This document shows, one piece after another, positions 5,353 to 43,906 of a stretch of 64,000 bases of DNA (positions within the stretch are counted from its first letter, which is position 1; the number at the start of each line of letters is the position of its first letter). This DNA comes from Squalus acanthias (taxonomy: Eukaryota): NCBI GenBank assembly GCA_030390025.1, contig CM059431.1:137518001-137582000 (forward strand), in the 5' to 3' direction. The notes under the pieces were generated by a model that saw nothing but the letters and a program-made list of their open reading frames with translations, searched no databases and was not told where the DNA came from. The position numbers and the translations under genes were made by a program.

Positions 5353-5577
5353 TATCAACCCCTAACTGCCTAGCTCTAATTTGAAGAAGTTTATGCCTCA
5401 TTGTTCTGGACTCCCCCACCAGAGGAAAAATAGTTTTTCTCTATCTACCCTGTCAAATCCTTTAATCATCTTAAACACCTCAATTAGTACACACCTTGAT
5501 CTTCTATATTCAAGGCAATAGAAGCCTAGTCTTTGCAACCTGTTCTCATAATTTATCCATTTTAGCTCAGGTCTCAT

Positions 5578-24300: not shown

Positions 24301-27300
24301 GAGGGGGCGGTTCAGTCTGAGAGAGGGGCGGTTCAGTCTGAGAGAGGGGCGGTTCAGTCTGAGAGAGGGGGCGGTTCAGTCTGAGAGAGGGGTCGGTTCA
24401 GTCTGAGAGAGGGGACGGTTCAGTCTGAGAGAGGGGGCGGTTCAGTCTGAGAGAGGGGGCGGTTCAGTCTGAGAGAGGGGGCGGTTCAGTCTGAGAGAGG
24501 GGGCGGTTCAGTCTGAGAGAGGGAGCGGTTCAGTCTGAGAGAGGGGGCGGTTCAGTCAGAGAGAGGGGACGGTTCAGTCTGAGAGAGGGGACGGTTCAGT
24601 CTGAGAGAGGGGGCGGTTCAGTCTGAGAGAGGGAACGGTTCAGTCTGAGAGAGGGCGCGGTTCAGTCTGAGAGAGGCGGCGGTTCAGTTTGAGAGCGGGG
24701 ACGGTTCAGTCTGAGAGAGGGGGCGGTTCAGACTGAGAGAGGGGGCGGTTCAGTCTGAGAGAGGGGGCGGTTCACTCTGAGAGAGGGGGGGTTCAGTCTG
24801 AGAGAGGGGGGGTTCAGTCTGAGAGAGGGGACGGTTCAGTCTGAGAGAGGGGGTGGTTCAGTCTGAGAGAGGGGGTGGTTCAGTCTGAGAGAGGGGGAGG
24901 TTCAGACTGAGAGAGGGGACGGTTCAGTCCGAGACAGAGGGTGGTTCAGACTGAGAGAGGGGGCGGTTCAGTCTGAGAGAGGGGACGGTTCAGTCTGAGA
25001 GAGGGGTGGTTCAGACTGAGAGAGGGTGTGGTTCAGTCTGAGAGAGGGGACGGTTCAGTCTGAGAGAGGCGGGGGGGTTCAGTCTGAGAGAGGGGGCAGT
25101 TCAGTCTGAGAGAGGGGGTGGTTCAGTCTGAGAGAGGGTGGTTCAGTCTGAGAGAGGGGGCGGTTCAGTCTGAGAGAGGGGACGGTTCAGTCTGAGAGAG
25201 GGGTGGTTCAGTCTGAGACAGAGGGTGGTTCAGTCTGAGAGAGGGGACGGTTCAGTCTGAGAGAGGGGGCGGTTCAGTCGAGAAGAGGGGGGTTCAGTCT
25301 GAGAGAGGGGGGGTTCAGTCTGAGAGAGGGGGGGTTCAGTCTGAGAGAGGGGACGGTTCAGTCTGAGAGAGGGGGCGGTTCAGTCTGAGAGAGGGGACGG
25401 TTCAGTCTGAGAGAGGGGGCGGTTCAGTCCGAGACAGAGGGTGGTTCAGTCTGAGAGAGGGGACGGTTCAGTCTGAGAGAGGTGGCGGTTCAGTCTGAGA
25501 GAGGGGGCGGTTCAGTCTGAGAGAGGGGACGGTTCAGTCTGAGAGAGGGGGCGGTTCAGTCCGAGACAGGGTGGTTCAGTCTGAGAGAGGGGGGGTTCAG
25601 TCTGAGAGAGGGGGGGTTCAGTCTGAGAGAGGGGGGGGTTCAGTCTGAGAGAGGGGGGGTTCAGTCTGAGAGAGGGGACGGTTCAGTCTGAGAGAGGGGA
25701 CGGTTCAGTCTGAGAGCGGGGGTGTTCAGTCTGAGAGAGGGGACGGTTCAGTCAGAGAGGGGGGGTTCAGTCTACGAGAGGGCGGTTCAGTCTGAGAGAG
25801 GGGGCGGTTCAGTCTGAGAGAGGGGCGGTTCAGTCTGAGAGAGGGCGCGGTTCAGTCTGAGAGAGGGGGCGGTTCAGTCTGAGAGAGGGGTCGGTTCAGT
25901 CTGAGAGAGGGGGTGGTTCAGTCTGAGAGAGGGGGCGGTTCAGTCTGAGAGAGGGGACGGTTCAGTCTGAGAGAGGGGGCGGTTCAGTCCGAGACAGAGG
26001 GTGGTTCAGTCTGAGAGAGGGGACGGTTCAGTCTGAGAGAGGGGGCGGTTCAGTCTGAGAGAGATGGCGGTTCAGTCTGAGAGAGGGGACGGTTCAGTCT
26101 GAGAGAGGGGGCGGTTCAGTCCGAGACAGGGTGGTTCAGTCTGAGAGAGGGGGGGTTCAGTCTGAGAGAGGGGGGGTTCAGTCCGAGAGAGGGGGGGGTT
26201 CAGTCTGAGAGAGGGGGGGTTCAGTCTGAGAGAGGGGACGGTTCAGTCTGAGAGAGGGGAAGGTTCAATCTGAGAGGGGGGGTTCAGTCTACGAGAGGGC
26301 GGTTCAGTCTGAGAGAGGGGGCGGTTCAGTCTGAGAGAGGGGCGGTTCAGTCTGAGAGAGGGCGCGGTTCAGTCTGAGAGAGGGGGCGGTTCAGTCTGAG
26401 AGAGGGGTCGGTTCAGTCTGAGAGAGGGGACGGTTCAGTCTGAGAGAGGGGGCGGTTCAGTCTGAGAGAGGGGGCGGTTCAGTCTGAGAGGGGGGTTCAG
26501 TCTGAGAGAGGGGCGGTTCAGTCTGAGAGAGGGGGCGTTCAGTCTGAGAGAGGGGCGGTTCAGTCTGAGAGAGGGCGCGGTTCAGTCTGAGAGAGGGGGC
26601 GGTTCAGTCTGAGAGAGGGGTCGGTTCAGTCTGAGAGAGGGGACGGTTCAGTCTGAGAGAGGGGGCGGTTCAGTCTGAGAGAGGGGGCGGTTCAGTCTGA
26701 GAGAGGGGGCGGTTCAGTCTGAGAGAGGGGGCGGTTCAGTCTGAGAGAGGGAGCGGTTCAGTCTGAGAGAGGGGGCGGTTCAGTCTGAGAGAGGGGACGG
26801 TTCAGTCTGAGAGAGGGGACGGTTCAGTCTGAGAGAGGGGCGGTTCAGTCTGAGAGAGGGGACGGTTCAGTCTGAGAGAGGGGCGGTTCAGTCTGAGAGA
26901 GGGGCGGTTCAGTCTGAGAGAGGGGACGGTTCAGTCTGAGAGAGGGGGCGGTTCAGTCTGAGAGAGGGGGCGGTTCAGTCTGAGAGAGGGGGCGGTTCAG
27001 TCTGAGAGAGGGGGGGTTCAGTCTGAGAGAGGGGGGGTTCAGTCTGAGAGAGGGGACGGTTCAGTCTGAGAGAGGGGGTGGTTCAGTCTGAGAGAGGGGG
27101 TGGTTCAGTCTGAGAGAGGGGGAGGTTCAGTCTGAGAGAGGGGACGGTTCAGTCTGAGAGAGGGTGGTTCAGTCTGAGAGAGGGGCGGTTCAGTCTGAGA
27201 GAGGGGACGGTTCAGTCTGAGAGAGGGGTGGTTCAGTCTGAGAGAGGGGTGGTTCAGTCTGAGAGAGGGGACGGTTCAGTCTGAGAGAGGGGGGGGTTCA

Positions 27301-30300
27301 GTCTGAGAGAGGGGGCGGTTCAGTCTGAGAGAGGGGGTGGTTCAGTCTGAGAGAGGGGGGTTCAGTCTGAGAGAGGGGCGGTTCAGTCTGAGAGAGGGGA
27401 CGGTTCAGTCTGAGAGAGGGGGTGGTTCAGTCTGAGAGAGGGTGGTTCAGTCTGAGAGAGGGGACGGTTCAGTCTGAGAGAGGGGCGGTTCAGTCTGAGA
27501 GAGGGTGGTTCAGTCTGAGAGAGGGGGGGTTCAGTCTGAGAGAGGGGGGGTTCAGTCTGAGAGAGGGGACGGTTCAGTCTGAGAGAGGGGGCGGTTCAGT
27601 CTGAGAGAGGGGACGGTTCAGTCTGAGAGAGGGGGCGGTTCAGTCTGAGAGAGGGGGGTTCAGTCTGAGAGATGGGACGGTTCAGTCTGAGAGAGGGGCG
27701 GTTCAGTCTGAGAGAGGGGGCGGTTCAGTCTGAGAGAGGGGACGGTTCAGTCTGAGAGAGGGGGCGGTTCAGTCTGAGAGAGGGGGGTTCAGTCTGAGAG
27801 AGGGGGGGTTCAGTCTGAGAGAGGGGGGGTTCAGTCTGAGAGAGGGGGGGTTCAGTCTGAGAGAGGGGGGGTTCAGTCTGAGAGAGGGGACGGTTCAGTC
27901 TGAGAGAGGGGACGGTTCAGTCTGAGAGAGGGGGGTTCAGTCTGAGAGAGGGGACGGTTCAGTCTGAGAGAGGGGGGTTCAGTCTGAGAGAGGGGCGGTT
28001 CAGTCTGAGAGAGGGGGCGGTTCAGTCTGAGAGAGGGGCGGTTCAGTCTGAGAGAGGGGCGGTTCAGTCTGAGAGAGGGGGCGGTTCAGTCTGAGAGAGG
28101 GGACGGTTCAGTCTGAGAGAGGGGACGGTTCAGTCTGAGAGAGGGGGCGGTTCAGTCTGAGAGAGGGGGCGGTTCAGTCTGAGAGAGGGGCGGTTCAGTC
28201 TGAGAGAGGGGCGGTTCAGTCTGAGAGAGGGGGCGGTTCAGTCTGAGAGAGGGGCGGTTCAGTCTGAGAGAGGGGCGGTTCAGTCTGAGAGAGGGGGCGG
28301 TTCAGTCTGAGAGAGGGGTCGGTTCAGTCTGAGAGAGGGGACGGTTCAGTCTGAGAGAGGGGGCGGTTCAGTCTGAGAGAGGGGGCGGTTCAGTCTGAGA
28401 GAGGGGCGGTTCAGTCTGAGAGAGGGGCGGTTCAGTCTGAGAGAGGGGACGGTTCAGTCTGAGAGAGGGGCGGTTCAGTCTGAGAGAGGGGACGGTTCAG
28501 TCTGAGAGAGGGGGCGGTTCAGTCTGAGAGAGGGGCGGTTCAGTCTGAGAGAGGGGACGGTTCAGTCTGAGAGAGGGGGCGGTTCAGTCTGAGAGAGGGG
28601 CGGTTCAGTCTGAGAGAGGGGACGGTTCAGTCTGAGAGAGGGGCGGTTCAGTCTGAGAGAGGGGGGGTTCAGTCTGAGAGAGGGGCGGTTCAGTCTGAGA
28701 GAGGGGACGGTTCAGTCTGAGAGAGGGGGGTTCAGTCTGAGAGAGGGGAGGTTCAGTCTGAGAGAGGGGGCGGTTCAGTCTGAGAGAGGGGACGGTTCAG
28801 TCTGAGAGAGGGGGACGGTTCAGTCTGAGAGAGGGGACGGTTCAGTCTGAGAGAGGGGCGGTTCAGTCTGAGAGAGGGGCGGTTCAGTCTGAGAGAGGGG
28901 CGGTTCAGTCTGAGAGAGGGGCGGTTCAGTCTGAGAGAGGGGCGGTTCAGTCTGAGAGAGGGGCGGTTCAGTCTGAGAGAGGGGCGGTTCAGTCTGAGAG
29001 AGGGGGCGGTTCAGTCTGAGAGAGGGGTCGGTTCAGTCTGAGAGAGGGGACGGTTCAGTCTGAGAGAGGGGGCGGTTCAGTCTGAGAGAGGGGGCGGTTC
29101 AGTCTGAGAGAGGGGGCGGTTCAGTCTGAGAGAGGGGGCGGTTCAGTCTGAGAGAGGGGGCGGTTCAGTCTGAGAGAGGGGGCGGTTCAGTCTGAGAGAG
29201 GGGGCGGTTCAGTCTGAGAGAGGGGGCGGTTCAGTCTGAGAGAGGGGCGGTTCAGTCTGAGAGAGGGGCGGTTCAGTCTGAGAGAGGGACGGTTCAGTCT
29301 GAGAGAGGGGGCGGTTCAGTCTGAGAGAGGGGGCGGTTCAGTCTGAGAGAGGGGTCGGTTCAGTCTGAGAGAGGGGACGGTTCAGTCTGAGAGAGGGGGC
29401 GGTTCAGTCTGAGAGAGGGGACGGTTCAGTCTGAGAGAGGGGCGGTTCAGTCTGAGAGAGGGGGGTTCAGTCTGAGAGAGGGGGGGTTCAGTCTGAGAGA
29501 GGGGGGTTCAGTCTGAGAGAGGGGGGGTTCAGTCTGAGAGAGGGGGGGTTCAGTCTGAGAGAGGGGACGGTTCAGTCTGAGAGAGGGGACGGTTCAGTCT
29601 GAGAGAGGGGGGGTTCAGTCTGAGAGAGGGGACGGTTCAGTCTGAGAGAGGGGGGGTTCAGTCTGAGAGAGGGGCGGTTCAGTCTGAGAGAGGGGGCGGT
29701 TCAGTCTGAGAGAGGGGCGGTTCAGTCTGAGAGAGGGGCGGTTCAGTCTGAGAGAGGGGGCGGTTCAGTCTGAGAGAGGGGTCGGTTCAGTCTGAGAGAG
29801 GGGACGGTTCAGTCTGAGAGAGGGGGCGGTTCAGTCTGAGAGAGGGGGCGGTTCAGTCTGAGAGGGGGCGGTTCAGTCTGAGAGAGGGCGGTTCAGTCTG
29901 AGAGAGGGGGCGGTTCAGTCTGAGAGAGGGGGCGGTTCAGTCTGAGAGAGGGGCGGTTCAGTCTGAGAGAGGGGCGGTTCAGTCTGAGAGAGGGGGCGGT
30001 TCAGTCTGAGAGAGGGGTCGGTTCAGTCTGAGAGAGGGGACGGTTCAGTCTGAGAGAGGGGGCGGTTCAGTCTGAGAGAGGGGGCGGTTCAGTCTGAGAG
30101 GGGGGTTCAGTCTGAGAGAGGGGCGGTTCAGTCTGAGAGAGGGGGCGATTCAGTCTGAGAGAGGGGCGGTTCAGTCTGAGAGAGGGCGCGGTTCAGTCTG
30201 AGAGAGGGGGCGGTTCAGTCTGAGAGAGGGGTCGGTTCAGTCTGAGAGAGGGGACGGTTCAGTCTGAGAGAGGGGGCGGTTCAGTCTGAGAGAGGGGGCG

Positions 30301-33300
30301 GTTCAGTCTGAGAGAGGGGGCGGTTCAGTCTGAGAGAGGGGGCGGTTCAGTCTGAGAGAGGGGCGGTTCAGTCTGAGAGAGGGGCGGTTCAGTCTGAGAG
30401 AGGGGCGGTTCAGTCTGAGAGAGGGGCGGTTCAGTCTGAGAGAGGGGGCGGTTCAGTCTGAGAGAGGGGACGGTTCAGTCTGAGAGAGGGGCGGTTCAGT
30501 CTGAGAGAGGGGCGGTTCAGTCTGAGAGAGGGGACGGTTCAGTCTGAGAGAGGGGGCGGTTCAGTCTGAGAGAGGGGGCGGTTCAGTCTGAGAGAGGGGG
30601 CGGTTCAGTCTGAGAGAGGGGACGGTTCAGTCTGAGAGAGGGGACGGTTCAGTCTGAGAGAGGGGAGGTTCAGTCTGAGAGAGGGGACGGTTCAGTCTGA
30701 GAGAGGGGGCGGTTCAGTCTGAGAGAGGGGCGGTTCAGTCTGAGAGAGGGGACGGTTCAGTCTGAGAGAGGGGGCGGTTCAGTCTGAGAGAGGGGGGTTC
30801 AGTCTGAGAGAGGGGGGGTTCAGTCTGAGAGAGGGGGGGTTCAGTCTGAGAGAGGGGACGGTTCAGTCTGAGAGAGGGGCGGTTCAGTCTGAGAGAGGGG
30901 ACGGTTCAGTCTGAGAGAGGGGCGGTTCAGTCTGAGAGAGGGGGCGGTTCAGTCTGAGAGAGGGGCGGTTCAGTCTGAGAGAGGGGCGGTTCAGTCTGAG
31001 AGAGGGGCGGTTCAGTCTGAGAGAGGGGCGGTTCAGTCTGAGAGAGGGGCGGTTCAGTCTGAGAGAGGGGGCGGTTCAGTCTGAGAGAGGGGTCGGTTCA
31101 GTCTGAGAGAGGGGACGGTTCAGTCTGAGAGAGGGGGCGGTTCAGTCTGAGAGAGGGGGCGGTTCAGTCTGAGAGAGGGGCGGTTCAGTCTGAGAGAGGG
31201 GCGGTTCAGTCTGAGAGAGGGGACGGTTCAGTCTGAGAGAGGGGGCGGTTCAGTCTGAGAGAGGGGACGGTTCAGTCTGAGAGAGGGGCGGTTCAGTCTG
31301 AGAGAGGGGACGGTTCAGTCTGAGAGAGGGGCGGTTCAGTCTGAGAGAGGGGGCGGTTCAGTCTGAGAGAGGGGTCGGTTCAGTCTGAGAGAGGGGACGG
31401 TTCAGTCTGAGAGAGGGGGCGGTTCAGTCTGAGAGAGGGGACGGTTCAGTCTGAGAGAGGGGGCGGTTCAGTCTGAGAGAGGGGTGGTTCAGTCTGAGAG
31501 AGGGGGGGTTCAGTCTGAGAGAGGGGCGGTTCAGTCTGAGAGAGGGGGGGTTCAGTCTGAGAGAGGGGCGGTTCAGTCTGAGAGAGGGGACGGTTCAGTC
31601 TGAGAGAGGGGACGGTTCAGTCTGAGAGAGGGGGGGTTCAGTCTGAGAGAGGGGACGGTTCAGTCTGAGAGAGGGGGGTTCAGTCTGAGAGAGGGGCGGT
31701 TCAGTCTGAGAGAGGGGGCGGTTCAGTCTGAGAGAGGGGCGGTTCAGTCTGAGAGAGGGGCGGTTCAGTCTGAGAGAGGGGGCGGTTCAGTCTGAGAGAG
31801 GGGGCGGTTCAGTCTGAGAGAGGGGACGGTTCAGTCTGAGAGAGGGGGCGGTTCAGTCTGAGAGAGGGGGCGGTTCAGTCTGAGAGAGGGGCGGTTCAGT
31901 CTGAGAGAGGGGCGGTTCAGTCTGAGAGAGGGGCGGTTCAGTCTGAGAGAGGGGGCGGTTCAGTCTGAGAGAGGGGCGGTTCAGTCTGAGAGAGGGCGCG
32001 GTTCAGTCTGAGAGAGGGGGCGGTTCAGTCTGAGAGAGGGGTCGGTTCAGTCTGAGAGAGGGGACGGTTCAGTCTGAGAGAGGGGGCGGTTCAGTCTGAG
32101 AGAGGGGGCGGTTCAGTCTGAGAGGGGGGTTCAGTCTGAGAGAGGGCGGTTCAGTCTGAGAGAGGGGGCGGTTCAGTCTGAGAGAGGGGCGGTTCAGTCT
32201 GAGAGAGGGCGCGGTTCAGTCTGAGAGAGGGGGCGGTTCAGTCTGAGAGAGGGGTCGGTTCAGTCTGAGAGAGGGGACGGTTCAGTCTGAGAGAGGGGGC
32301 GGTTCAGTCTGAGAGAGGGGGCGGTTCAGTCTGAGAGAGGGGACGGTTCAGTCTGAGAGAGGGGACGGTTCAGTCTGAGAGAGGGGACGGTTCAGTCTGA
32401 GAGAGGGGCGGTTCAGTCTGAGAGAGGGGGCGGTTCAGTCTGAGAGAGGGGACGGTTCAGTCTGAGAGAGGGGACGGTTCAGTCTGAGAGAGGGGACGGT
32501 TCAGTCTGAGAGAGGGGGCGGTTCAGTCTGAGAGAGGGGCGGTTCAGTCTGAGAGAGGGGACGGTTCAGTCTGAGAGAGGGGGCGGTTCAGTCTGAGAGA
32601 GGGGGCGGTTCAGTCTGAGAGAGGGGCGGTTCAGTCTGAGAGAGGGGACGGTTCAGTCTGAGAGAGGGGCGGTTCAGTCTGAGAGAGGGGACGGTTCAGT
32701 CTGAGAGAGGGGGCGGTTCAGTCTGAGAGAGGGGACGGTTCAGTCTGAGAGAGGGGACGGTTCAGTCTGAGAGAGGGGACGGTTCAGTCTGAGAGAGGGG
32801 ACGGTTCAGTCTGAGAGAGGGGCGGTTCAGTCTGAGAGAGGGGGGTTCAGTCTGAGAGAGGGGCGGTTCAGTCTGAGAGAGGGGGCGGTTCAGTCTGAGA
32901 GAGGGGCGGTTCAGTCTGAGAGAGGGGACGGTTCAGTCTGAGAGAGGGGCGGTTCAGTCTGAGAGAGGGGCGGTTCAGTCTGAGAGAGGGGCGGTTCAGT
33001 CTGAGAGAGGGGCGGTTCAGTCTGAGAGAGGGGCGGTTCAGTCTGAGAGAGGGGCGGTTCAGTCTGAGAGAGGGGCGGTTCAGTCTGAGAGAGGGGCGGT
33101 TCAGTCTGAGAGAGGGGACGGTTCAGTCTGAGAGAGGGGCGGTTCAGTCTGAGAGAGGGGCGGTTCAGTCTGAGAGAGGGGCGGTTCAGTCTGAGAGAGG
33201 GGGCGGTTCAGTCTGAGAGAGGGGCGGTTCAGTCTGAGAGAGGGGCGGTTCAGTCTGAGAGAGGGGGCGGTTCAGTCTGAGAGAGGGGCGGTTCAGTCTG

Positions 33301-35093
33301 AGAGAGGGGACGGTTCAGTCTGAGAGAGGGGGGGTTCAGTCTGAGAGAGGGGCGGTTCAGTCTGAGAGAGGGGACGGTTCAGTCTGAGAGAGGGGCGGTT
33401 CAGTCTGAGAGAGGGGGCGGTTCAGTCTGAGAGAGGGGACGGTTCAGTCTGAGAGAGGGGACGGTTCAGTCTGAGAGAGGGGCGGTTCAGTCTGAGAGAG
33501 GGGACGGTTCAGTCTGAGAGAGGGGGCGGTTCAGTCTGAGAGAGGGGGGTTCAGTCTGAGAGAGGGGGGGTTCAGTCTGAGAGAGGGGGGTTCAGTCTGA
33601 GAGAGGGGGGGTTCAGTCTGAGAGAGGGGGGGTTCAGTCTGAGAGAGGGGACGGTTCAGTCTGAGAGAGGGGACGGTTCAGTCTGAGAGAGGGGGGGTTC
33701 AGTCTGAGAGAGGGGACGGTTCAGTCTGAGAGAGGGGGGTTCAGTCTGAGAGAGGGGCGGTTCAGTCTGAGAGAGGGGGCGGTTCAGTCTGAGAGAGGGG
33801 CGGTTCAGTCTGAGAGAGGGGCGGTTCAGTCTGAGAGAGGGGCGGTTCAGTCTGAGAGAGGGGGCGGTTCAGTCTGAGAGAGGGGACGGTTCAGTCTGAG
33901 AGAGGGGGCGGTTCAGTCTGAGAGAGGGGCGGTTCAGTCTGAGAGAGGGGCGGTTCAGTCTGAGAGAGGGGCGGTTCAGTCTGAGAGAGGGGGCGGTTCA
34001 GTCTGAGAGAGGGGCGGTTCAGTCTGAGAGAGGGGCGGTTCAGTCTGAGAGAGGGGCGGTTCAGTCTGAGAGAGGGGGCGGTTCAGTCTGAGAGAGGGGT
34101 CGGTTCAGTCTGAGAGAGGGGACGGTTCAGTCTGAGAGAGGGGCGGTTCAGTCTGAGAGAGGGGGCGGTTCAGTCTGAGAGAGGGGGCGGTTCAGTCTGA
34201 GAGAGGGGGCGGTTCAGTCTGAGAGAGGGGGCGGTTCAGTCTGAGAGAGGGGGCGGTTCAGTCTGAGAGAGGGGGCGGTTCAGTCTGAGAGAGGGGACGG
34301 TTCAGTCTGAGAGAGGGGCGGTTCAGTCTGAGAGAGGGGCGGTTCAGTCTGAGAGAGGGGACGGTTCAGTCTGAGAGAGGGGCGGTTCAGTCTGAGAGAG
34401 GGGCGGTTCAGTCTGAGAGAGGGGGCGGTTCAGTCTGAGAGAGGGGGGGTTCAGTCTGAGAGAGGGGGGTTCAGTCTGAGAGAGGGGACGGTTCAGTCTG
34501 AGAGAGGGGCGGTTCAGTCTGAGAGAGGGGGGGTTCAGTCTGAGAGAGGGGGGTTCAGTCTGAGAGAGGGGACGGTTCAGTCTGAGAGAGGGGACGGTTC
34601 AGTCTGAGAGAGGGGACGGTTCAGTCTGAGAGAGGGGGGTTCAGTCTGAGAGAGGGGGGGTTCAGTCTGAGAGAGGGGACGGTTCAGTCTGAGAGAGGGG
34701 ACGGTTCAGTCTGAGAGAGGGGACGGTTCAGTCTGAGAGAGGGGCGGTTCAGTCTGAGAGAGGGGACGGTTCAGTCTGAGAGAGGGGGGGTTCAGTCTGA
34801 GAGAGGGGGGGTTCAGTCTGAGAGAGGGGACGGTTCAGTCCGAGACAGAGGGTGGTTCAATCTTAGAGAGGGGGCGGTTCAGTCTGAGAGAGGGGACGGT
34901 TCAGTCTGTGAGAGGGGGCGGTTCAGTCCGAGACAGAGGGGGGTTCAGTCTGAGAGAGGGGGGGGTTCAGTCTGAGAGAGGGGGGGTTCAGTCTGAGAGA
35001 GGGGACGGTTCAGTCTGAGAGAGGGGACTGTTCAGTCTGAGAGAGGGGGGGGTTCAGCCTGAGAGAGGGGACGGTTCAGTCAGAGAGGGGGGG
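18352..35093 (+). repeat. G-rich ~22-bp minisatellite array (consensus GGTTCAGTCTGAGAGAGGGG[A/G]C), ~16.7 kb
   Basis: Directly visible tandem units of 20-23 bp, varying mainly in the G-run. Confidence 0.99.
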
Positions 35094-35719
35094 TGTAAGT
35101 ATGGGGCTCCGCACCCCCTGGTGCTCGCATCCCACCTCATCCCCTGTCCGTTATCCTGCCACTGGTTAATAAAGAATATGGAGATGCCTTTGGGGCAAAC
35201 GTACTTTGACCCCCACATACAAACATAAATCCCCTCATCCGGTTCCCACCATTTGTCCCAACAGACTTTCACTTGTCCGTTTGTCCCCGTAATTGTCCGA
35301 TGGGTATTATTACCCAGTCGCTCCCACTCAACCGAAGAGTTCCTCATAGTTTTGCTCAGCTTTCGCAGCCCCCACCATCGGCTCAATGGGACATTCCCAC
35401 TGCAGGTCAAACAAATCCGTTTGCAGACGGTGACGCTGATCCTGGGTGCGACGATCCGTACTTTGGGGCACATTAAAGAAGTCTCTTTGTAGGCGAACCC
35501 CGATGTGCTGGAATACTCCGTTGAGTTCGTTCCCAGCCATCCTGGCCACCTTCCCTTGTGGAAATAGGTGCTGGTCCCTTCTGCCTTCCGTCTCCCGGTC
35601 CCATCCACCGCGATGGGGGCCGTGTCCCCGGAACATCCAAACACCACGACATCCTTGGTGAGGCCCCGATAGGCCAATCCACATCCGATTGCCGCGAGCA
35701 ATACTATGAGTCGTTCCAT
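35054..35719 (-). CDS. ORF3 in env position: signal peptide + putative Ig-like domain, C-terminally truncated (last ~13 aa come from satellite)
   Basis: MERLIVLLAAIGCGLA leader; ICLTC106...W115W116...DEGIYVC167; N-glycosylation sequons NST, NSS, NNT; splice acceptor ctcattctatctgatcacAG 13 nt upstream of the ATG. Confidence 0.7.
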   Translation of the reverse strand: MERLIVLLAAIGCGLAYRGLTKDVVVFGCSGDTAPIAVDGTGRRKAEGTSTYFHKGRWPGWLGTNSTEYSSTSGFAYKETSLMCPKVRIVAPRISVTVCKRICLTCSGNVPLSRWWGLRKLSKTMRNSSVEWERLGNNTHRTITGTNGQVKVCWDKWWEPDEGIYVCMWGSKYVCPKGISIFFINQWQDNGQGMRWDASTRGCGAPYLHPPSLTEPSPLSG

Positions 35720-36003
35720 CCTTCCTTGGTTCCTGTGATCAGATAGAATGAGGTAGCCAGCCTCGCAAAAAGTCTCTGGCTTTTGTGAAGGGTGAGCGGG
35801 TCCCCTGACCTCGCCTCACGTAAACTTCAACGTTTGCTAAATAGACTTCCTCTAAACCTAGCCTTAAAACTCCCATCATTTTATCGTTATCTGTTAAAAA
35901 CACTACAAACTTAACCTTATTAAAACTACTTAAAACTTTAAACTAAAACTTAAAACCTTAAACTAATAACTTTACAATGCCGCCCGTTCTCAGGGCGGCC
36001 CCT

Positions 36004-39000
36004 TTAAATCCTGAGAAGGCTGCTGCGAGCTCTTCCCGACGGTGGGAGGGCACTGACCCTTCCCTCTGATCTGCCGCAGCCTGTTACTGCTTCGATGTGG
36101 CCTGTCTCTACCCGGGTTATCTTAACCTGAAACTTACGCCCTGGGGCAGCCTGTGGACCTGACCACATCTTCCTGGGCTGGGGTACTCTGCTTGACCTAC
36201 GGGGAATTGCTATGGGCGGGGGCTCCGTGACGGACGGACCGGGTCCCGAGACCTTCAACGGGATGACCTGGGGTTCCATCACAGGCGCCAGCCCCGCCTC
36301 CGCTGACTCCGCCTCCCTAACCTCGGGGCTGGTAGTTCGGGGCCCCGCCCTGCTCGGCCCAGCAGGCGGCCCTTCACTCGCGAACTCTGCCTCCCCTGAG
36401 GACTGGACGTTCAAAGCGGGCGGCCACACCTCTGGGAACCACATAGCGGCTGGCCCGGCCTCCTCTAGCTCCTTCCTCCTGCTGTCGGGACCTGCAGCTT
36501 GTGTGTCCACCCCGTATGGATCTCTACCTAGCGGCCCCAATCCTTCCAGACCGTTCCTCTGAAACCACCCGTCATCATCACTATGCTCATCTGCACTATC
36601 CTCATCTGACCAGGGTACCCTGGGGTCCTCGTCATCTAACCCCCAACTCCAGAAAAACGCTGCATGATCGTCCGGGATGTCCCTTCCCCTGATGCAAGCT
36701 GCTACGCCTGCCTGTGTGCCTTGTGGTCCTACCTGGGGCTGTGTTTTCCCATTGGCGGGATTTACCCCTGTAGTTTTCCCTTGCGCACCCGGCTGGTACA
36801 GTTTACATTGGTTTATGTGGAACCACTTAGTGCGCCGAGGTACTTTTACGGCGTAAACCATGGGACTTGCCTTGTCTACAATGTTGTAGGGTCCCATATA
36901 CAGTGGTTCCAGACTCCCTACTCTGGCGTAGTTTCTGACCATGACCTGGTCTCCTACTTCCCACTGCCGCGTTTTGCGGGGTTCCAGCAACAAGCGATTG
37001 CCCTGGTGCTGCCTTCCCATGTTCCCAGCCGCCTGCTCATAAACTTGCTTCAGGCGCTCCAAGAGAGTTTGGGCGAACTTGTCCCTGCTGATCTCTTGAA
37101 GCTGACCCTCAGTGAGCACCGGGGCTAGCACATGGGTGGGGGTTCGCATGAGCCTGCCGGTCATTACCTCGTGCGGGGAGTACCCCGTACTTTTTGACTG
37201 ACTGGCCCGGACCCCCATGAGGACTAAAGGCAGAACTTCCGCCCATTTTTGGGGCGAGTTCCTAGTCTCTTTCCTCAATTTCTCCTTCAGGGTCCGGTTC
37301 ATACGTTCAACAATCCCGGATGACTGGGGATTGTGTGCTACGTGCCACTTCCCTTCAATGCCCAAAAGCATGAGGGTGTTCTGCATCACCTGGCCGGTGA
37401 AATGACTCCCTTGGTCTGACTCCACGAAACGGGGGAGTCCCCACCGCGAGAACACTTCCCGGACCAAGATTTTTGCTGTACCCAGTGCCGTAGCTGTTCG
37501 ACAAGGGAAGGCTTCCACCCACTTGGAAAACACATCCACCAGGACGAGGCAGTACTTATAACCTCCCTGGGTGGTGGGCAGGGGTCCTATATAGTCGATC
37601 TGTATCGACTGCCATGGTCCCTCTACCCTTCTTACGTGTCCCATGGGCACCTTCCTTTTCTGGGGGTCTGGGTTATTTGCAGCGCACACAAGACAGTTTG
37701 CACAGAACTCGCGGACTTGTTCCCTGAGCCCTGGCCACCATCCCGCTTGCTCTACCCGTTGCCAGGTAACCTCGGGCCCGGGGTGCCCTGCCCCTGGTCC
37801 CTCGTGAGCCAACTGGAGGAATTCCCTCCTGTGCTGCTGCGGCACAACCCACTGCTCCTCGCGGAACAGCATGCCTTCCTTAACTGAGAGGGTTGCCGTA
37901 CTGTACGGACCTTCTACCTGCCTCCCCTCAGCAATCGTTTTTAGGACTGCTTTTAGGGCGGGATCCTGGGCTTGGACGGTCTTAAGGTCTAGGGGCAATG
38001 CTACCCTGGTGTTCCCGGTATTCCCGTCCCCGCCTCGGACCGCTGCTATGGGTCCGGTTCTATAGGGGTTCCAGAAAGTACCGTCGCGGGCACCCTCCCT
38101 GGCTAGCGCATCCGCCTGCCGGTTGCCCTCCCCACGGGGCTCTGTGGAGGAGTGAGCTTTCACCTTATGGATGAAAATCTCCCCTTCCTCCCCTACTGCT
38201 GCTGCTAAGATCTTCTCCAGCAAGGGCTTTACCGTTAAAGGTCGCCCGTCCGCGGAGGTGTATCCACGGCGGGACCAAATGGCCAGGTATTCCGTACACG
38301 AATTGCAGGTGAACATACTGTCCGAGCAAATCGTGTATGGGGTTGGGAAAATGTCTGGGTGGGTTACCACGTACACCACGGCAGACAGCTCAGCCTGCTG
38401 CGCGCTCATGGTGCTAGGGAGCTTGATCGCCAGGGCAAGGTCTGCCGCAGGGTCATAAACTCCACACCCTGTGAGTCGCTCGCCAGCAGATACTGTGCTA
38501 GACCCATCAACATAAATCTCGCGCCCAGTGGGATGTATCCCGGCCCGTAAACCTATGTTGACGTCCCACACCCCTTCCACCGAACACCGGTGGGCTGTAC
38601 CGGGGTATACCAAATTGGCCGCAAGCCTGGGCTCGCAAAGACCTTTTACTCTAAGATCCAACTGGGAGAGAAGAAGGGTCCAACGCGCAATGCGTGCGCT
38701 GCTTACGGTCCCGTCTTTAATCCTCCCATCCAGAAGCATCTTAGTTGGTGTGTGATGTGTGAGGAGAGTGATGGGAGAGAGCCCTGTGAAGATCGCTGAT
38801 CTTTTCACAGCCCAATGCGTGGCTAAAAGGTGCCTTTCGCAATTGGAAAAACTTCTCTCCACATCCGTTAATACCCTGGATGAATAGACAACCGGCCTCA
38901 GCTTGCCGTGACGCTCTTGGAGCAGCACGGCGCTTAAGCTGTCTCCGCTGGCAGCTACCTCCAGGAAAAACTCCTTCCCCCCATCTATGGCCCCTAAGGC

Positions 39001-40467
39001 TGGCGCGGTCTGCAGATCCCTTTTTAACTTCTCGAAGGCTGCTTGGCAGCCCTCGTCCCAAAGCCACTCTACCCCCTTATGGAGGAGTCGGAGGAGCGGC
39101 GCCGCTGTGGCCGCATAATCCTCGATAAAATCCCTGCAGTAACCGGTCAGTCCCAAGAAGGACCTCACACCCCTTACGTTGTTGGGAATCGGTAATTCTT
39201 GCACCGACTCCCTCCTTGCTTTGTCTATGGCTCTTTCCCCAGCGCGTAGGGTCAGTCCCAGGAATTTTACTTCCTGCTGACCGATACGTGCTTTCTTTGG
39301 GTTTACTTTAAAACCCTTTCTCGCTAACAGCTCCAATAACTCGTCCAGTAGTGGTCCGTGCTCCTCCCTTGAGTCCGTAAATAGGAGCAAATCATCCACA
39401 TACTGTACTATCTGATTGGGCTGACTAAACTCCTTTAAACTTCCTGCCATACACTGGTGAAAAATACTGGGGCTATTGTGGAAACCCTGTGGCAAGCAGT
39501 TCCACGTGTACTGTTGCCCTTTAAACGTAAAGGCAAACTTGTACTGGTCCTCTCGCCGCAGCGGGATGGACCAAAAACCGTTCGAGATATCCAGCACCGT
39601 GAACGTGGCCGCGGACGCTGGGATGCTCCCTATTAGGTCAGCAACTGCTGCTACTGTGGGCGCGCAGGCGGGGATGTTACTGTTAAGGACTCTGTAGTCC
39701 ACCGTGGCTCTCCACGAATTATCCGGCTTCCTAACCGGCCATAATGGGGAGTTCACGTGTGTGGCTATCGGCCTCAACACGCCCTGCTGCACCAAGGAAG
39801 ACATTGCTGCCTCCATATCGGGTTCTGCTTCTTTGGGGAAGTTATACTGCTTTTGGGGTCGGGTCATGGGGTCCCCATCTACGCTGACCTCAAACCCGAC
39901 CACCCTCCCACAATCGTGCTTGTGGGTTGCAAACGCGTGCATATTATCTGTCACGTACGTTTGCATGTCCGTTGGGACATCTGCGACCATAAGCCTGAGG
40001 TCGTAGCCTCCGGATGGCTGTACGGTACACAGGACCCCTGTTTCTTCCTCCCCTTGAATTACCATTACCTCGCCCTTTTCACCTTTAGCCCCCCAGAGAC
40101 AGTGATTCCTGAGGTCCACGAGGATCCCGTGTCCCGCTAGGAGATCGGACCCGAGAATACCTCTTCCACCCCCCTTTTGCCATGCCATCAGTATACACTT
40201 CCACTTAAGGCGAAGTGTTCCTAACCGAATGGATAGCGGGAGGGAAAACGTGCCAGCCTGTTCTTTCCCTGTGAACCCTGCTAGCGTGAATGGGACCTTG
40301 GTAGATAGCGGCGAGTCAAAAGGGTCATCTGTATGGATTATGGTGCAAGAAGCTCCCGTATCCAACAAATAACTGCCCTTTTGTTTCTCTACCTCCATCT
40401 CCACCACAGGTCGCCTCCACGCATCATAGCTGAGCGGACACAGGTAGACGGGCTGTGCTGGTTCTAG
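36004..40467 (-). CDS. pol: Pol: protease, RT, tether (degenerate RNase H), RNase H, integrase, long acidic/Pro-rich tail
   Basis: LLDTGA...ILGSD; LDISNGFWSIP, LPQGFHNSP, YVDD; IYVDGS...SAQQAEL...SDS...KVKAH...GNRQADALA; HEG..AGH..CANCLVC; IQIDYIGP..SDQGSHF..GIVERMN; GPY. Open from the gag stop onward. Confidence 0.97.
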   Translation of the reverse strand, partial: LEPAQPVYLCPLSYDAWRRPVVEMEVEKQKGSYLLDTGASCTIIHTDDPFDSPLSTKVPFTLAGFTGKEQAGTFSLPLSIRLGTLRLKWKCILMAWQKGGGRGILGSDLLAGHGILVDLRNHCLWGAKGEKGEVMVIQGEEETGVLCTVQPSGGYDLRLMVADVPTDMQTYVTDNMHAFATHKHDCGRVVGFEVSVDGDPMTRPQKQYNFPKEAEPDMEAAMSSLVQQGVLRPIATHVNSPLWPVRKPDNSWRATVDYRVLNSNIPACAPTVAAVADLIGSIPASAATFTVLDISNGFWSIPLRREDQYKFAFTFKGQQYTWNCLPQGFHNSPSIFHQCMAGSLKEFSQPNQIVQYVDDLLLFTDSREEHGPLLDELLELLARKGFKVNPKKARIGQQEVKFLGLTLRAGERAIDKARRESVQELPIPNNVRGVRSFLGLTGYCRDFIEDYAATAAPLLRLLHKGVEWLWDEGCQAAFEKLKRDLQTAPALGAIDGGKEFFLEVAASGDSLSAVLLQERHGKLRPVVYSSRVLTDVERSFSNCERHLLATHWAVKRSAIFTGLSPITLLTHHTPTKMLLDGRIKDGTVSSARIARWTLLLSQLDLRVKGLCEPRLAANLVYPGTAHRCSVEGVWDVNIGLRAGIHPTGREIYVDGSSTVSAGERLTGCGVYDPAADLALAIKLPSTMSAQQAELSAVVYVVTHPDIFPTPYTICSDSMFTCNSCTEYLAIWSRRGYTSADGRPLTVKPLLEKILAAAVGEEGEIFIHKVKAHSSTEPRGEGNRQADALAREGARDGTFWNPYRTGPIAAVRGGDGNTGNTRVALPLDLKTVQAQDPALKAVLKTIAEGRQVEGPYSTATLSVKEGMLFREEQWVVPQQHRREFLQLAHEGPGAGHPGPEVTWQRVEQAGWWPGLREQVREFCANCLVCAANNPDPQKRKVPMGHVRRVEGPWQSIQIDYIGPLPTTQGGYKYCLVLVDVFSKWVEAFPCRTATALGTAKILVREVFSRWGLPRFVESDQGSHFTGQVMQNTLMLLGIEGKWHVAHNPQSSGIVERMNRTLKEKLRKETRNSPQKWAEVLPLVLMGVRASQSKSTGYSPHEVMTGRLMRTPTHVLAPVLTEGQLQEISRDKFAQTLLERLKQVYEQAAGNMGRQHQGNRLLLEPRKTRQWEVGDQVMVRNYARVGSLEPLYMGPYNIVDKASPMVYAVKVPRRTKWFHINQCKLYQPGAQGKTTGVNPANGKTQPQVGPQGTQAGVAACIRGRDIPDDHAAFFWSWGLDDEDPRVPWSDEDSADEHSDDDGWFQRNGLEGLGPLGRDPYGVDTQAAGPDSRRKELEEAGPAAMWFPEVWPPALNVQSSGEAEFASEGPPAGPSRAGPRTTSPEVREAESAEAGLAPVMEPQVIPLKVSGPGPSVTEPPPIAIPRRSSRVPQPRKMWSGPQAAPGRKFQVKITRVETGHIEAVTGCGRSEGRVSALPPSGRARSSLLRI

Positions 40468-42279
40468 TCATGGGGCACTATTAGACGGTCCTGCGGCACC
40501 TACGGGGCCGGTTGCGACCGCCACCTGTCCACGCGCATTCAAAACCATCTTGCGCATGACTCCTAACACTGCTTCGAGGTCTTCAGGAGAGGTGGGTGCC
40601 TTTGCTTCCTTAGCCGGGACAGGCGCCTGGGTTCGGACCGCGGGATTTTTATCCTTGGAATCCTTCCAAGGGTTCCTGCAGTGCTTGCGCCAGTGCCCTG
40701 TCTTCCCACACCCGTAACAGGCATTACTTGCCTGTGGGGCGCGATTACCCTCCTGATGCCACTCTCTTTGAGTCGGGGCTGCGGGTCGTACCTCATGTAC
40801 TCTTCCCTTAAAGGGACGTGTCGTCATACCCCTTATGTTACGGTAACCTAACGTGAGTCGATTCAAGACCGACTCTTCCGTAAGGTTGAGGTCATTGGGA
40901 TCGAACCAGGCTTTTGCCTGCTCTCTAACGGCTGGTAAACTGTTGGCTATTATGCACCTAAGCCAATGAATTAAAGCGGCGCCTTCCACATCTTCGCGTT
41001 CGGGCGCACCTAGACAGCTGCGCTCATATACTGGCCACAGCCTGTCGGCAAAAACCTTCGGGGGTTCTCCCTCCATCTGCACTGTCTGTCCCACTCTAGC
41101 AAACGGACCTCCGTCGTTCGCTCCCACTACTTCTAGGACCTCATTTTTCAATTCCTCATAACTTTTATTACCCCTCTTGCTATCGCCTGAGAGACACTGA
41201 AGGACCGAGCTATCTAAAGAGAACAGCAGCATTTTTGCTGTCTCCCCATCATCGCAGCCGTTGATGGCTGCGGCTTGCTCAACTTCCCTAAAATGTACGG
41301 AAGGGTCGTCTATCTCGGTCAGCTTCCTTACGTGGTTTATCATGGCCCTCAGCTGATGTGAACTGTGAGGCAACACCAGCTGTCCGAGGAGATCCCCCGG
41401 TTCTTCCCCACCGTTTCTGCTTGGGCCCCTTTTAATCCCCGTTACGGGATACAACGATCCCTTTTCTACCTCCTTTTCAACGGGCTCTTTTGCTTCTTCC
41501 GTTGCTTCCTCCCTAACCCAGGTTTCTGAATAGCTGGGTGGCGCGGAGGGCGCAGTGGCTACTACTTCTTCTGCTTTACTTGGTGGGGAATTTCTAAATC
41601 TCTCATTTACTAGCGGCTGGCGTGCCGACGGATTAATAAGGCACACCATGCCGTTCGCATTATTCACGGCCTTTTTGAGGCTCTCTATCTCTTTTTCGCA
41701 GGCGCTATGGTCGGCTCCCTGAAACTTATCCTCAAGGGCCAACTTATACGCCGACCTAACCCCCATTAAGCTCTCTTCTTGAGTTCTTATCTGGGCAGCT
41801 TGACGGTTACATCTTTCCTTCATCCTACTCTCGTTTAATTTTGCTTCAGTGATCTGGCACTCGAGATACTCTACCCTTGTTTTAAGGTAACTGGAGACTT
41901 CCTGGCTTTCCTGGCGTAACTCATTTAAACTCTTAATGAGCGCCTCCCCTCCAGAAACCTTCTCCTCCATTTCCTCCTCTAGATGCTTGATTCGAGCGGT
42001 TAGCGCTGTATTGGTCTGGTTTGAAATCTGAACCTGCCTTTTGTAGCACATAAGCCAGACTGCTTTCTCAACTGCCTTTTTATGCTCCTTACTATCCGTC
42101 CACCTTTCAGCTGCCTCTAGTGGGCTCTTATCCGCTAACAATTCGCTTATCCACTTTTTAGTTAGATTAACCTTTCCAAACACATAATCCGCTATCTTTT
42201 CCTGCATAACATTTCGTACAGTCATTCCAAAGTCTAACACATTACCCTCTCGCTGCCAGCGTCCTGCCGCGGTCGCCAT
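40468..42279 (-). CDS. gag: Gag (603 aa): N-terminal coiled coil, capsid-like region, one CCHC zinc knuckle
   Basis: Lies between PBS and pol. CYGCGKTGHWRKHC knuckle, heptad-like E/K/L-rich segment at ~aa 85-205, PSAPPSY late-domain-like motif. Confidence 0.92.
   Translation of the reverse strand: MATAAGRWQREGNVLDFGMTVRNVMQEKIADYVFGKVNLTKKWISELLADKSPLEAAERWTDSKEHKKAVEKAVWLMCYKRQVQISNQTNTALTARIKHLEEEMEEKVSGGEALIKSLNELRQESQEVSSYLKTRVEYLECQITEAKLNESRMKERCNRQAAQIRTQEESLMGVRSAYKLALEDKFQGADHSACEKEIESLKKAVNNANGMVCLINPSARQPLVNERFRNSPPSKAEEVVATAPSAPPSYSETWVREEATEEAKEPVEKEVEKGSLYPVTGIKRGPSRNGGEEPGDLLGQLVLPHSSHQLRAMINHVRKLTEIDDPSVHFREVEQAAAINGCDDGETAKMLLFSLDSSVLQCLSGDSKRGNKSYEELKNEVLEVVGANDGGPFARVGQTVQMEGEPPKVFADRLWPVYERSCLGAPEREDVEGAALIHWLRCIIANSLPAVREQAKAWFDPNDLNLTEESVLNRLTLGYRNIRGMTTRPFKGRVHEVRPAAPTQREWHQEGNRAPQASNACYGCGKTGHWRKHCRNPWKDSKDKNPAVRTQAPVPAKEAKAPTSPEDLEAVLGVMRKMVLNARGQVAVATGPVGAAGPSNSAP
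42261..42278 (-). promoter_or_regulatory. Primer-binding site complementary to tRNA-Arg(TCG)
   Basis: TGGCGACCGCGGCAGGAC, 5 nt inside the LTR. It is the 18-nt complement of the vertebrate tRNA-Arg-TCG 3' end GTCCTGCCGCGGTCG-CCA (tRNA sequence from memory). Confidence 0.88.
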
Positions 42280-42283
42280 TTTC

Positions 42284-43906
42284 TGTAAGGGACACTCTCC
42301 TGACCCTGCGTGTCTCGTAACCTGTGAGGTTCACGCGGCTCTGTGCAGCCTGTATGTCAGTGCGGGTCTAGGCCTGGTCTCCAGCCAGTCTGGGAACACT
42401 AGACACCCCTGTGAGTGGTTCGAATCACTCTCCCTTACGGTTCTAGACACTGGACTTAGATGCGAGAGCAGTAATGGAGATAAAACTCATGTAGACTTGG
42501 TTTGAACGGTACGAAATGGAAAATCTTTATTGCATGATACTGAAAATTATGAAATACATGTCATATGCACAGATTAATGACAGTACAATCTTACAAACAG
42601 TTATAAATACTCTTAGGGAAACGAGGAACGACCAGCACAACGTAAATAGGGCACACATTACAAATATCCTTAATCTTTAAAACCCTCCCCTATTAATGTC
42701 TATCCTAAAACTAGCTTCGTAGGATCCCGAGACTCATGCTCACCACTCGTAATAACTCGGAGAAATCCCGAATAGCTGATCGGATGTTTTTCACCGCAGC
42801 ACCCACGTGTTGGTCAGGAGATCTCCTGGTCCCACTTGTTTACTGCTTCTGCTGCTCGGTCAGTCGGCTGGACCGTCCGCTGTAGTGAAGACCTCTGTTG
42901 GTTGGATACAGGGTATGGTGGAGCACCGTTGTCAATATCGCTGATACGATGTGTTTGCACAGTCCAGTTATCGTCGATGCAATATGTCTTGTTAAAGAAG
43001 AAAACTTCCTGTCGAGAAGACTTGGCTGATCGACCTACAGGCGCGGTCGGGATTTACTGACCGTGGCGATGGATAAGGTCTTCTTCTCTTCTCCTCTCAT
43101 CTCATCTCATCTCATCTCATCTCATCCCGGGCCTTCGGTTCCGCTGCCAGCTACCAACATAGGTCTTTGCAACAGTCTTTTACCCAGGAGCAGCCACGAG
43201 GTTACGAATCGACCGGATAAAACACAGGAGCAGCCACGATGATAACAGCAGCAAGCGGCAAGAGTCAAGAGCAAAAGAGCAAGAGAGCGAATGGACGGTT
43301 TGGGCCTGCAATTATAGTGCACAGTTCTTCCGTTTCCCGCCCAACTACAATGTCCATTCTTTTGTTTAAGGTTTGGCGCCCAAAAATGTCCTGTATGGGT
43401 GATCTCTGTCCTTAATGGGTTTCGGGGCTACTCCTGAATGTTTGAGTATCTGTCAATATTTCTCCCATTGTTAAATCGGTCGGTGTTCCCCCTGGAGGGG
43501 TTTGGGGCTTCCAAGTGTCCTGTATAACTACCTGCTAACGGCTCTCTCATCGTAGAGCCGTTGGGAGTTTACATACTAATGTCTTTTGGATGGGCCCTTG
43601 ATGGCTTTCCTTTGTACCTGGGAGACCGATTCCAGTATCGATGTTTATACTGTAAACCCATAATGTCCTGTGTATTGTCTTCACTGTGCTGAATCGTTAT
43701 CGATCTTGCAAGAATGTTTATTGGAACGCCATCTTGTCTGCCTGCTGAAAAGTCTAGAATGTTCTGTCACGAGGTGCGGCGGCCATTTTACAGGCTGCTT
43801 GTGTCCAATTTAAACCTGACAGCATTCTGCTGAAATAAAAGCTGTTTGAACGAAACTTTGTGTTTTCTCCTTATTAAATCAAATCGCGATAATTGCGAAT
43901 TCTACA
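42284..43906 (-). repeat. 5' LTR (1623 bp)
   Basis: TGT...ACA termini. Minus-strand GC/E2F-like box ~43333-43342, TATAAT 43316-43311, AATAAA 42531-42526. Confidence 0.95.

Follow-up and report, generated by a model that had tools for sequence, protein, structure and literature searches.

A 64,000-nucleotide stretch of the Squalus acanthias genome (GenBank assembly GCA_030390025.1, contig CM059431.1, positions 137,518,001 to 137,582,000; hereafter the window) carries one copy, cut short at its 3' end, of an endogenous retrovirus (ERV) that is young and very abundant; this copy comprises a 5' long terminal repeat (LTR), gag, pol and env codons 1–207. Full copies of this element probably encode a single type I membrane envelope protein (Env) that combines an immunoglobulin (Ig)-like head with a fusion machine like that of paramyxovirus F proteins. 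The third open reading frame (ORF) of the window copy lies on the minus strand, extends from stop to stop over 35815..35054 and has its Met codon at 35719-35717. Its translation begins with the leader MERLIVLLAAIGCGLA and continues with ICLTC (C103 and C106), W115/W116, C153 and DEGIYVC (C167), with N-glycosylation sequons at N65, N127 and N137. C106 and C167 are 61 amino acids (aa) apart, each within a predicted strand, and a putative disulfide would link them. A first-pass annotation, made from the letters of the window, had drawn attention to the hydrophobic leader, to ICLTC106, Trp115/116 and DEGIYVC167, to the 61-aa spacing, to an extra Cys103/Cys153 pair and to three sequons, and all of these are present in the translation. 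Searching the 783-aa Env of a full copy with the regular expression [LIVF]xC-x(8-16)-W-x(30-65)-DxGxYxC returned a single match, at aa 104.

The truncation reported in the first-pass annotation is real, as a 22-bp satellite cuts env after codon 207. In blastn comparisons, identity to the full copy at locus L021 stopped at 35098, while the satellite reaches 35093. Because identity to full copies ends at 35098, residues 208–221 and the stop codon are satellite-encoded. The window copy showed 99.3% nucleotide identity to positions 5477–6469 of L021 (blastn), and 204 of the 207 remnant residues were identical, the window copy carrying the changes I90V, G99C and W117G. Since L021 differs at those sites, the extra Cys99 and the loss of the third Trp are specific to this copy. 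Pfam searches with the truncated window ORF alone gave 0 families at E ≤ 0.1. The window env is a dead, satellite-truncated family member, from which no fusogen is possible and at most a secreted head of ~205 aa could be made.

A six-frame search of the same 3.7-Gb assembly yielded 5905 first-look candidates, and 150 of these were scored. All 150 were 96–100% identical to the window env at the amino acid level. The open frame was 815 aa long in 121 of them and 801–857 aa in 10 more, and it was shorter in the other 19, including the window copy. The env family is thus very abundant and looks recently expanded. The env reading frame is more than a product of chance, because it is kept in 150/150 scored matches as well as in diverged lineages (51–73%). 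Such diverged env lineages in the same genome (loci L022–L033) have heads 51–58% identical to that of the window copy, many with stops or short frames.

The Env ORF of L021 is 783 aa long. A signal peptide (1–16) is followed by an N-terminal module (~17–234), an F2-like segment (~235–326) and the basic motif RQRR327-330, with a linker between the portion retained in the window copy and the F2-like segment. Directly after this motif comes a Gly-started hydrophobic stretch (GLVNDAFTAF...) resembling a fusion peptide, and then heptad helices, a beta-rich F1-like body, a membrane-proximal helix, a transmembrane (TM) helix and a short tail. AlphaFold 2 (AF2), run for the full Env on a 39-row alignment, predicted helices at 352–444 and 679–714 and a Cys-rich beta region at 477–645. 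The most hydrophobic 19-mers of the protein fall at 730–756, with the TM helix at ~734–756 and a tail of 27 aa. Full Env therefore presents the domain order of F-type proteins: cleavage site, fusion peptide, heptad repeat A (HRA), beta domains, HRB and TM. The furin site, fusion peptide and TM helix, which the first-pass annotation did not see in the window and considered possibly deleted, were all found in full-length copies.

The AF2 model of full Env had predicted local distance difference test (pLDDT) values of 82–96 over ~240–310 and 420–650. Querying the PDB with this model in Foldseek identified human parainfluenza virus 3 F as the best match (E 1.8e-10, prob 1.0, TMt 0.51), followed by the F proteins of parainfluenza virus 5, respiratory syncytial virus, Hendra, Nipah and Langya viruses and Newcastle disease virus, with 230 PDB matches at E ≤ 0.001. 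Another 59 matches at the same threshold were obtained from BFVD. They include glycoproteins of arli-/lispiviruses and related negative-strand viruses, baculovirus F, paramyxovirus F0 and two fish retroviral Envs, those of walleye epidermal hyperplasia virus 1 (WEHV-1; E 1.8e-13, rank 2) and walleye dermal sarcoma virus (WDSV; E 4e-10, rank 21). When the family profile was compared with the PDB, foamy virus Env gp130 was the sole significant match (8rm1_D, E 0.0018; 8rm0_A, E 0.0081), the other 15 rows having E ≥ 0.33. This match fits the link between foamy Env and F described in the accessible part of PMC11468914. In addition, one Env relative matched Baculo_F at E 0.0011 (Pfam). As modelled, the Env core has a paramyxovirus-F-type fold with domains I–III. 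Since full copies continue into the F-like fusion subunit, the window ORF represents the N-terminal portion of an Env that is unusual and not of the gamma type, one of the options raised in the first-pass annotation.

We then consider the N-terminal head. The full-length AF2 model placed strands at 86–90, 101–107, 115–121, 133–135, 141–146, 149–155 and 163–169, with C106 and C167 in separate predicted strands and W115–117 in a strand between them. For the head alone (aa 17–240, 19-row alignment), the best AF2 model reached a predicted TM-score (pTM) of 0.60 and pLDDT of 70–87 over aa ~87–176, and showed, with moderate confidence, the two-sheet beta-sandwich of Ig V/I-set domains. The top 50 Foldseek rows listed for the head were entries with antibody, nanobody, T-cell receptor (TCR) or VNAR variable domains. 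One example is 8gs9_K (prob 1.0, TMt 0.57, root mean square deviation (rmsd) 2.8 over 87 columns), and several other rows had prob 0.99–1.0 and rmsd 2.6–3.3 over 84–90 columns. The VIA wide search, which is independent of Foldseek, returned 253 chains at Z ≥ 5. The 50 rows listed had Z 7.0–6.0 and rmsd 1.9–3.2 over 72–86 residues and were, by their titles, Ig-type or antibody-holding, including a Fab L chain, CD79b, CD8, titin I-set, IgNAR V, NCAM2 and TCR.

Sequence comparisons pointed in the same direction. Pfam Ig_3, V-set or ig matches occurred in 7 family members (E 0.0027–0.49, all sub-threshold), the weak PDB sequence matches of the head were mostly Ig domains, and the UniRef name of a Chiloscyllium homolog is 'Ig-like domain-containing protein'. 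In the ESM Atlas, the N-terminus of a distant homolog (P0037) scored 0.93 with V-set clusters, with 185 shared features. Both the strand C Trp (W115–117) and the strand F D-x-G-x-Y-x-C motif (D161–C167) are kept in relatives; at 51–76% identity the latter reads DEGIYMC, DEGMYVC, DQGIYLC, EQGIYVC or EEGIYVC. Structure prediction, fold searches and recurrent sub-threshold Ig matches thus agree on the Ig-like module proposed in the first-pass annotation, and on these models and motifs we consider an Ig-like fold bearing an Ig-superfamily (IgSF) signature likely for the head.

Between two lineages of the same genome, the head is 53–65% identical, compared with 72–88% for the fusion part, and distant relatives align to Env just from ~aa 221–235 on (HMMER). 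A function as receptor-binding module would fit a head that evolves fast, is glycosylated and lies far from the membrane on a fusogen encoded by one gene. Paramyxoviruses assign attachment to a separate protein; in this single-gene element the head would take on that task, and receptor binding by the head would trigger F-type refolding, followed by fusion. Expression of env appears to proceed from a spliced mRNA that joins the LTR donor, ~1160 nt into the LTR and upstream of AATAAA, to the acceptor directly before env. One contig of sequencing run X3 joins 42744 to 35732 on the minus strand with GT..AG ends; the AG at 35734-35733, singled out as an acceptor in the first-pass annotation, is used in this contig. 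Should the head prove to be a genuine IgSF domain with a host receptor as its ligand, the F scaffold would offer a clear example of modular head exchange, and the env family would offer tractable, abundant natural variants for study.

Several results weigh against this picture of an Ig-headed, F-type Env. PF00523 (paramyxovirus F) was unmatched at E ≤ 10 in full Env and at E ≤ 0.1 in 18 relatives. In the full-length AF2 model, the head is all-beta from aa 86 to 169 at pLDDT of only 22–64, and the five models of the head alone had mean pLDDT of 58.7, 52.8, 48.3, 46.8 and 44.7, so that one is moderately confident and four are below 53. The head model had no Foldseek match at E ≤ 0.001 (best 1.1e-2), and VIA gave none at Z ≥ 8, the tool noting that Z 7–8 is typical of models without a clear match. 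None of the Pfam Ig scores reached the cut-off of 30 bits (best relative 18.6, E 0.0027; window lineage Ig_3 11.4, E 0.49), and the head is for this reason not filed as a member of a Pfam Ig family. The window lineage head scored 0.78–0.80 in the ESM Atlas, a level often reached by shuffled proteins. Alignment of the close-family heads with five distant heads in hhalign was not significant (prob 0.1%, E 0.56) and so lends no support to a single ancestry of the heads in all family members. The splice, finally, was seen as one contig in one of four runs, with a shorter side of 23 letters and a run whose RNA label was guessed. On the fold, these sub-threshold profile matches, VIA values of at most 7.0, low model confidence and the hhalign result would suit a different, possibly lineage-specific beta fold, in which case LxC...W...DxGxYxC would be coincidental and AlphaFold and the aligners would have defaulted to the commonest sandwich in the PDB. 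We regard this as unlikely. The four-part motif has canonical spacing, occurs once in 783 aa and is kept in relatives at 51–76% identity; C106 and C167 fall in separate predicted strands that have the W115–117 strand between them; and the weak matches of four independent methods fall nearly all into one clan, with the distant member at 0.93 for V-set.

The origin of the head and the nature of the window ORF allow further explanations. The IgSF-type sequence signature would suit the idea that this particular virus recently took up an Ig-superfamily exon of its host, and the first-pass annotation had proposed a captured host domain. However, cellular proteins gave no significant match to the head (best in the PDB, contactin-3 at E 0.13 and JAM at E 0.78), and every match at E ≤ 0.001 among 1.84 billion representatives that spans the head is either a relative of the Env or a gene model into which such a relative is fused. 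The head is also old within the lineage, being 44–76% identical among skate, shark and within-genome relatives, and Ig-like motifs stand at the same place in distant relatives from frog and shark. Recent capture was rejected on these grounds as very improbable. The truncated window copy could itself be functional, driven by the LTR, spliced and secreted as a head that blocks the receptor of related viruses; it would then resemble the truncated-Env restriction factors of mammals (antiviral truncated env genes are the subject of PMC9245640, accessible in part). Its LTR, donor, acceptor, start codon and leader are intact and its frame is open up to the satellite stop, but the copy sits inside a 22-bp satellite array of >27 kb, G99C and W117G fall in the predicted B and C strands, and the sole spliced contig cannot be tied to the window locus among thousands of copies. 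We judge this extremely improbable. The other option of the first-pass annotation is scarcely credible, namely that the ORF is no Env at all but an accessory gene of its own for a secreted, possibly immune-modulating Ig protein. The window ORF does end without a TM helix or fusion peptide, but the frame runs on to 801–857 aa in 131 of the 150 scored copies, where it is continuous with the F-like fusion subunit, and the L021 frame encodes the furin site along with the heptad helices and the TM helix, the whole folding as one F-like protein. For the family, the accessory-gene reading is refuted. An Env with an Ig-like head on an F-type core accordingly remains our preferred reading of the full copies.

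The coordinates of the provirus and its surroundings are collected in the table.

Table. Features of the truncated provirus and flanking satellite in the window.
Feature	Position	Strand	Remarks
5' LTR	42284..43907	-	starts TG at 43907; AATAAA near 42533; length 1624 nt
Splice donor G/GT within LTR	42742..42744	-	exon end 42744, GT 42743-42742; context GAGTG/GTGAGC
gag	40468..42279	-	ATG 42279, TGA 40470-40468; stop in frame with pol; one CCHC knuckle
pol	36004..40467	-	protease, reverse transcriptase, tether RNase H-like domain, RNase H, integrase, long C-terminal tail
env splice acceptor AG	35733..35734	-	exon begins 35732; directly upstream of Met
env remnant, codons 1–207 (signal peptide and N-terminal head)	35099..35719	-	from comparison with L021
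Signal-peptide-like leader, aa 1–16 (MER, hydrophobic run, GLA)	35672..35719	-	read from translation
Predicted Ig-like beta-sandwich core, aa ~85–176	35192..35467	-	C103, C106, W115–116, C153, D161–C167
Satellite-encoded tail, 14 codons and stop	35054..35098	-	ends truncated env ORF
22-bp satellite array	18358..35093	.	Tandem Repeats Finder (TRF): 774.5 copies, 92% matches; adjoins truncated 3' side of provirus
22-bp satellite, 5' LTR side	43921..54986	.	TRF: 507.3 copies

The 5' LTR was 98.7% identical to the stretch 3' of env in L021 (blastn, 1628 aligned columns). Within the LTR, a (TCTCA)n microsatellite occupies 43085-43126, and reads seem cut there. A search for direct repeats within 35000-44100 found the satellite alone, indicating that the window copy has no 3' LTR. 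The 22-bp satellite, with a unit of about GAGGGGGCGGTTCAGTCTGAGA, also occurs at 56623-57521, totals >27 kb and flanks the provirus on both sides. The provirus was apparently inserted into the satellite array and seems to have lost its 3' 4 kb later.

The zf-CCHC match of gag was weak (Pfam, E 0.084), whereas pol matched RVT_1 (2.7e-35), RT_RNaseH_2 (2e-21), RNase_H (2e-19), Integrase_H2C2 (1.6e-17) and rve (4.8e-15), with RT_RNaseH_2/RT_RNaseH at Pol residues 470–602 and RNase_H at 650–793. Beyond the TGA at 40468-40470, pol continues in the gag frame, which suggests that this stop codon is bypassed by read-through rather than by frameshifting. A TGGCGACC... stretch, a possible primer-binding site, overlaps the first gag ATG. 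L021 and contigs of all four sequencing runs carry a duplication of ~38–39 nt at 36053-36090; it adds 13 residues to the C-terminal tail of pol and is therefore an indel difference between copies.

Relatives of the Env were found in the sharks Mustelus, Heterodontus, Pristiophorus, Scyliorhinus and two Chiloscyllium species, in the skate Rhinoraja, in coelacanth and in the frogs Xenopus tropicalis, Pelodytes and Mantella. Four gene models (P0004, P0005, P0039 and P0070) fuse env pieces to other genes, the partners being Niban-like and ZFP2-like in sawshark, fbxo15 in horn shark and the upstream pol in frog. The fusions to host-like genes are likely annotation chimeras. In the frog model, the start of an Ig-headed env lies directly behind pol, which places pol and env in one element. 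The nearest Pol relatives were one protein at 89% identity, followed by frog 'NYNRIN-like' (43–46%) and coelacanth 'GIN1-like' (41%) proteins; beyond these, the listed relatives were fish ERVs at 28–31% and Ty3/gypsy elements at 30–35% over reverse transcriptase (RT) only. Against the PDB, Pol stood at similar distances from Ty3 (246 bits), the RT of murine leukemia virus (MLV) and its xenotropic relative XMRV (239) and foamy protease (PR)-RT (217), and it scored 118 bits with the integrase (IN) of prototype foamy virus (PFV).

Three placements of the lineage are candidates: related to lokiretroviruses, foamy-like within a shark–frog group, or epsilon-like. A shark–frog foamy-like clade is described in the accessible part of PMC5512871. 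The F-like Env, the coelacanth and frog hosts and the CGIN1 link of the integrase connect the element to lokiretroviruses as a lead only; in its accessible portion, PMC7947760 links the lokiretroviral IN to CGIN1. Of 18 short Pol/Env words compared with the lokiretrovirus supplement of that paper, as far as it was available, one matched, and this word is a generic one of RT that occurs in two of the Pol sequences. This scarcity speaks against the lokiretroviral placement, as does the lack of positive Chondrichthyes in that paper. An undescribed deep retrovirus branch of cartilaginous fishes, coelacanth and frogs, with a V-type IgSF domain acquired in the distant past from a vertebrate host and joined to the N-terminus of an F-type fusogen, so that one protein would both attach and fuse, is a speculative proposal to which we assign well under even chances. 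Were it true, the lineage would have been active very recently in the dogfish's own genome, judging by the many near-identical copies whose env frames are long and open.

Among known systems, paramyxovirus and pneumovirus F proteins share with the squalid Env the core fold (Foldseek E from 1.8e-10 to 1e-7 across numerous solved structures of F) and the order of domains. They differ in that the squalid Env has an N-terminal subunit of ~314 aa with an added head of ~220 aa and lacks a match at the Pfam level. Paramyxovirus F proteins rely on a separate attachment protein.

Like the present element, foamy viruses have a splice donor within the LTR. To our knowledge, they have neither a CCHC knuckle nor an in-frame stop between gag and pol, whereas both are found in gag of the present element. 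Foamy Env was the only significant PDB profile match (E 0.0018), and PFV integrase was the best integrase match (118 bits). According to the accessible text of PMC11468914 (Fernandez et al. 2024), foamy Env gp130 (8RM0/8RM1) likewise has an F-like core with domains I–III, but it carries its receptor-binding domain (RBD) as an insertion into domain III, where it lies between HRC and the furin site, and its leader is long. The squalid Env has a leader of 16 aa, and its extra module stands ahead of the F2-like part, at the very N-terminus. An N-terminal Ig-like head would thus be a different answer to attachment than a separate protein or an RBD inserted in domain III.

In gamma-type Envs such as that of MLV, the RBD is N-terminal and an Ig-like beta-sandwich. 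As far as we know, the sequence signature of the IgSF is absent from it, and the TM subunit beneath it is short and of the gamma type; the squalid Env, by contrast, combines the IgSF signature with an F-like fusion subunit. An in-frame gag-pol stop is a trait of epsilon- and gammaretroviruses. For the epsilonretroviral Envs of WEHV-1 and WDSV, BFVD models matched full Env (E 1.8e-13 and 4e-10, respectively), but these proteins are 1159–1317 aa long and show no sequence similarity in HMMER. Some elephant-shark ERVs are reported to group with epsilonretroviruses of walleye and amphibians in the part of PMC4422223 available to us.

A parallel in design is the lokiretroviral Env, with which the first-pass annotation had considered that full-length copies might align. 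As described in the accessible part of PMC7947760 (Wang & Han 2020), lokiretroviruses are PR-RT-tether-RNase H-IN elements whose Env resembles paramyxovirus and pneumovirus F and has a signal peptide, basic cleavage site, fusion peptide, coiled coil and TM helix, and their hosts include coelacanth and frogs, which also harbor relatives of the squalid env. A degraded tether RNase H with a second RNase H, in the order PR-RT-RH-IN, is present in our pol as well, a feature common to other retroviruses. The fusion part of the squalid Env is accordingly of the type described for lokiretroviral Env, and to that extent the comparison holds. The two also differ: lokiretroviral Env matches PF00523 at 2.2e-7 and the squalid Env does not, and the portion of PMC7947760 at hand makes no mention of an N-terminal Ig-like domain. 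That 2020 screen, again as far as its accessible text goes, reported no lokiretrovirus in Chondrichthyes (Orectolobiformes: 3 genomes, 0 positive), whereas an F-type Env is present here in cartilaginous fishes. Our literature search, which did not cover subscription journals, found no description of an F-type retroviral Env with an Ig-like head. F-type retroviral Envs bear on the origin of env genes and on the idea of one fusion scaffold common to RNA viruses, baculoviruses, retroelements and retroviruses. Such Envs are already reported for lokiretroviruses and, from structures, for foamy viruses; what would be new is the predicted N-terminal Ig-like head in an abundant family of cartilaginous fishes, which makes this Env unusual but not unprecedented.

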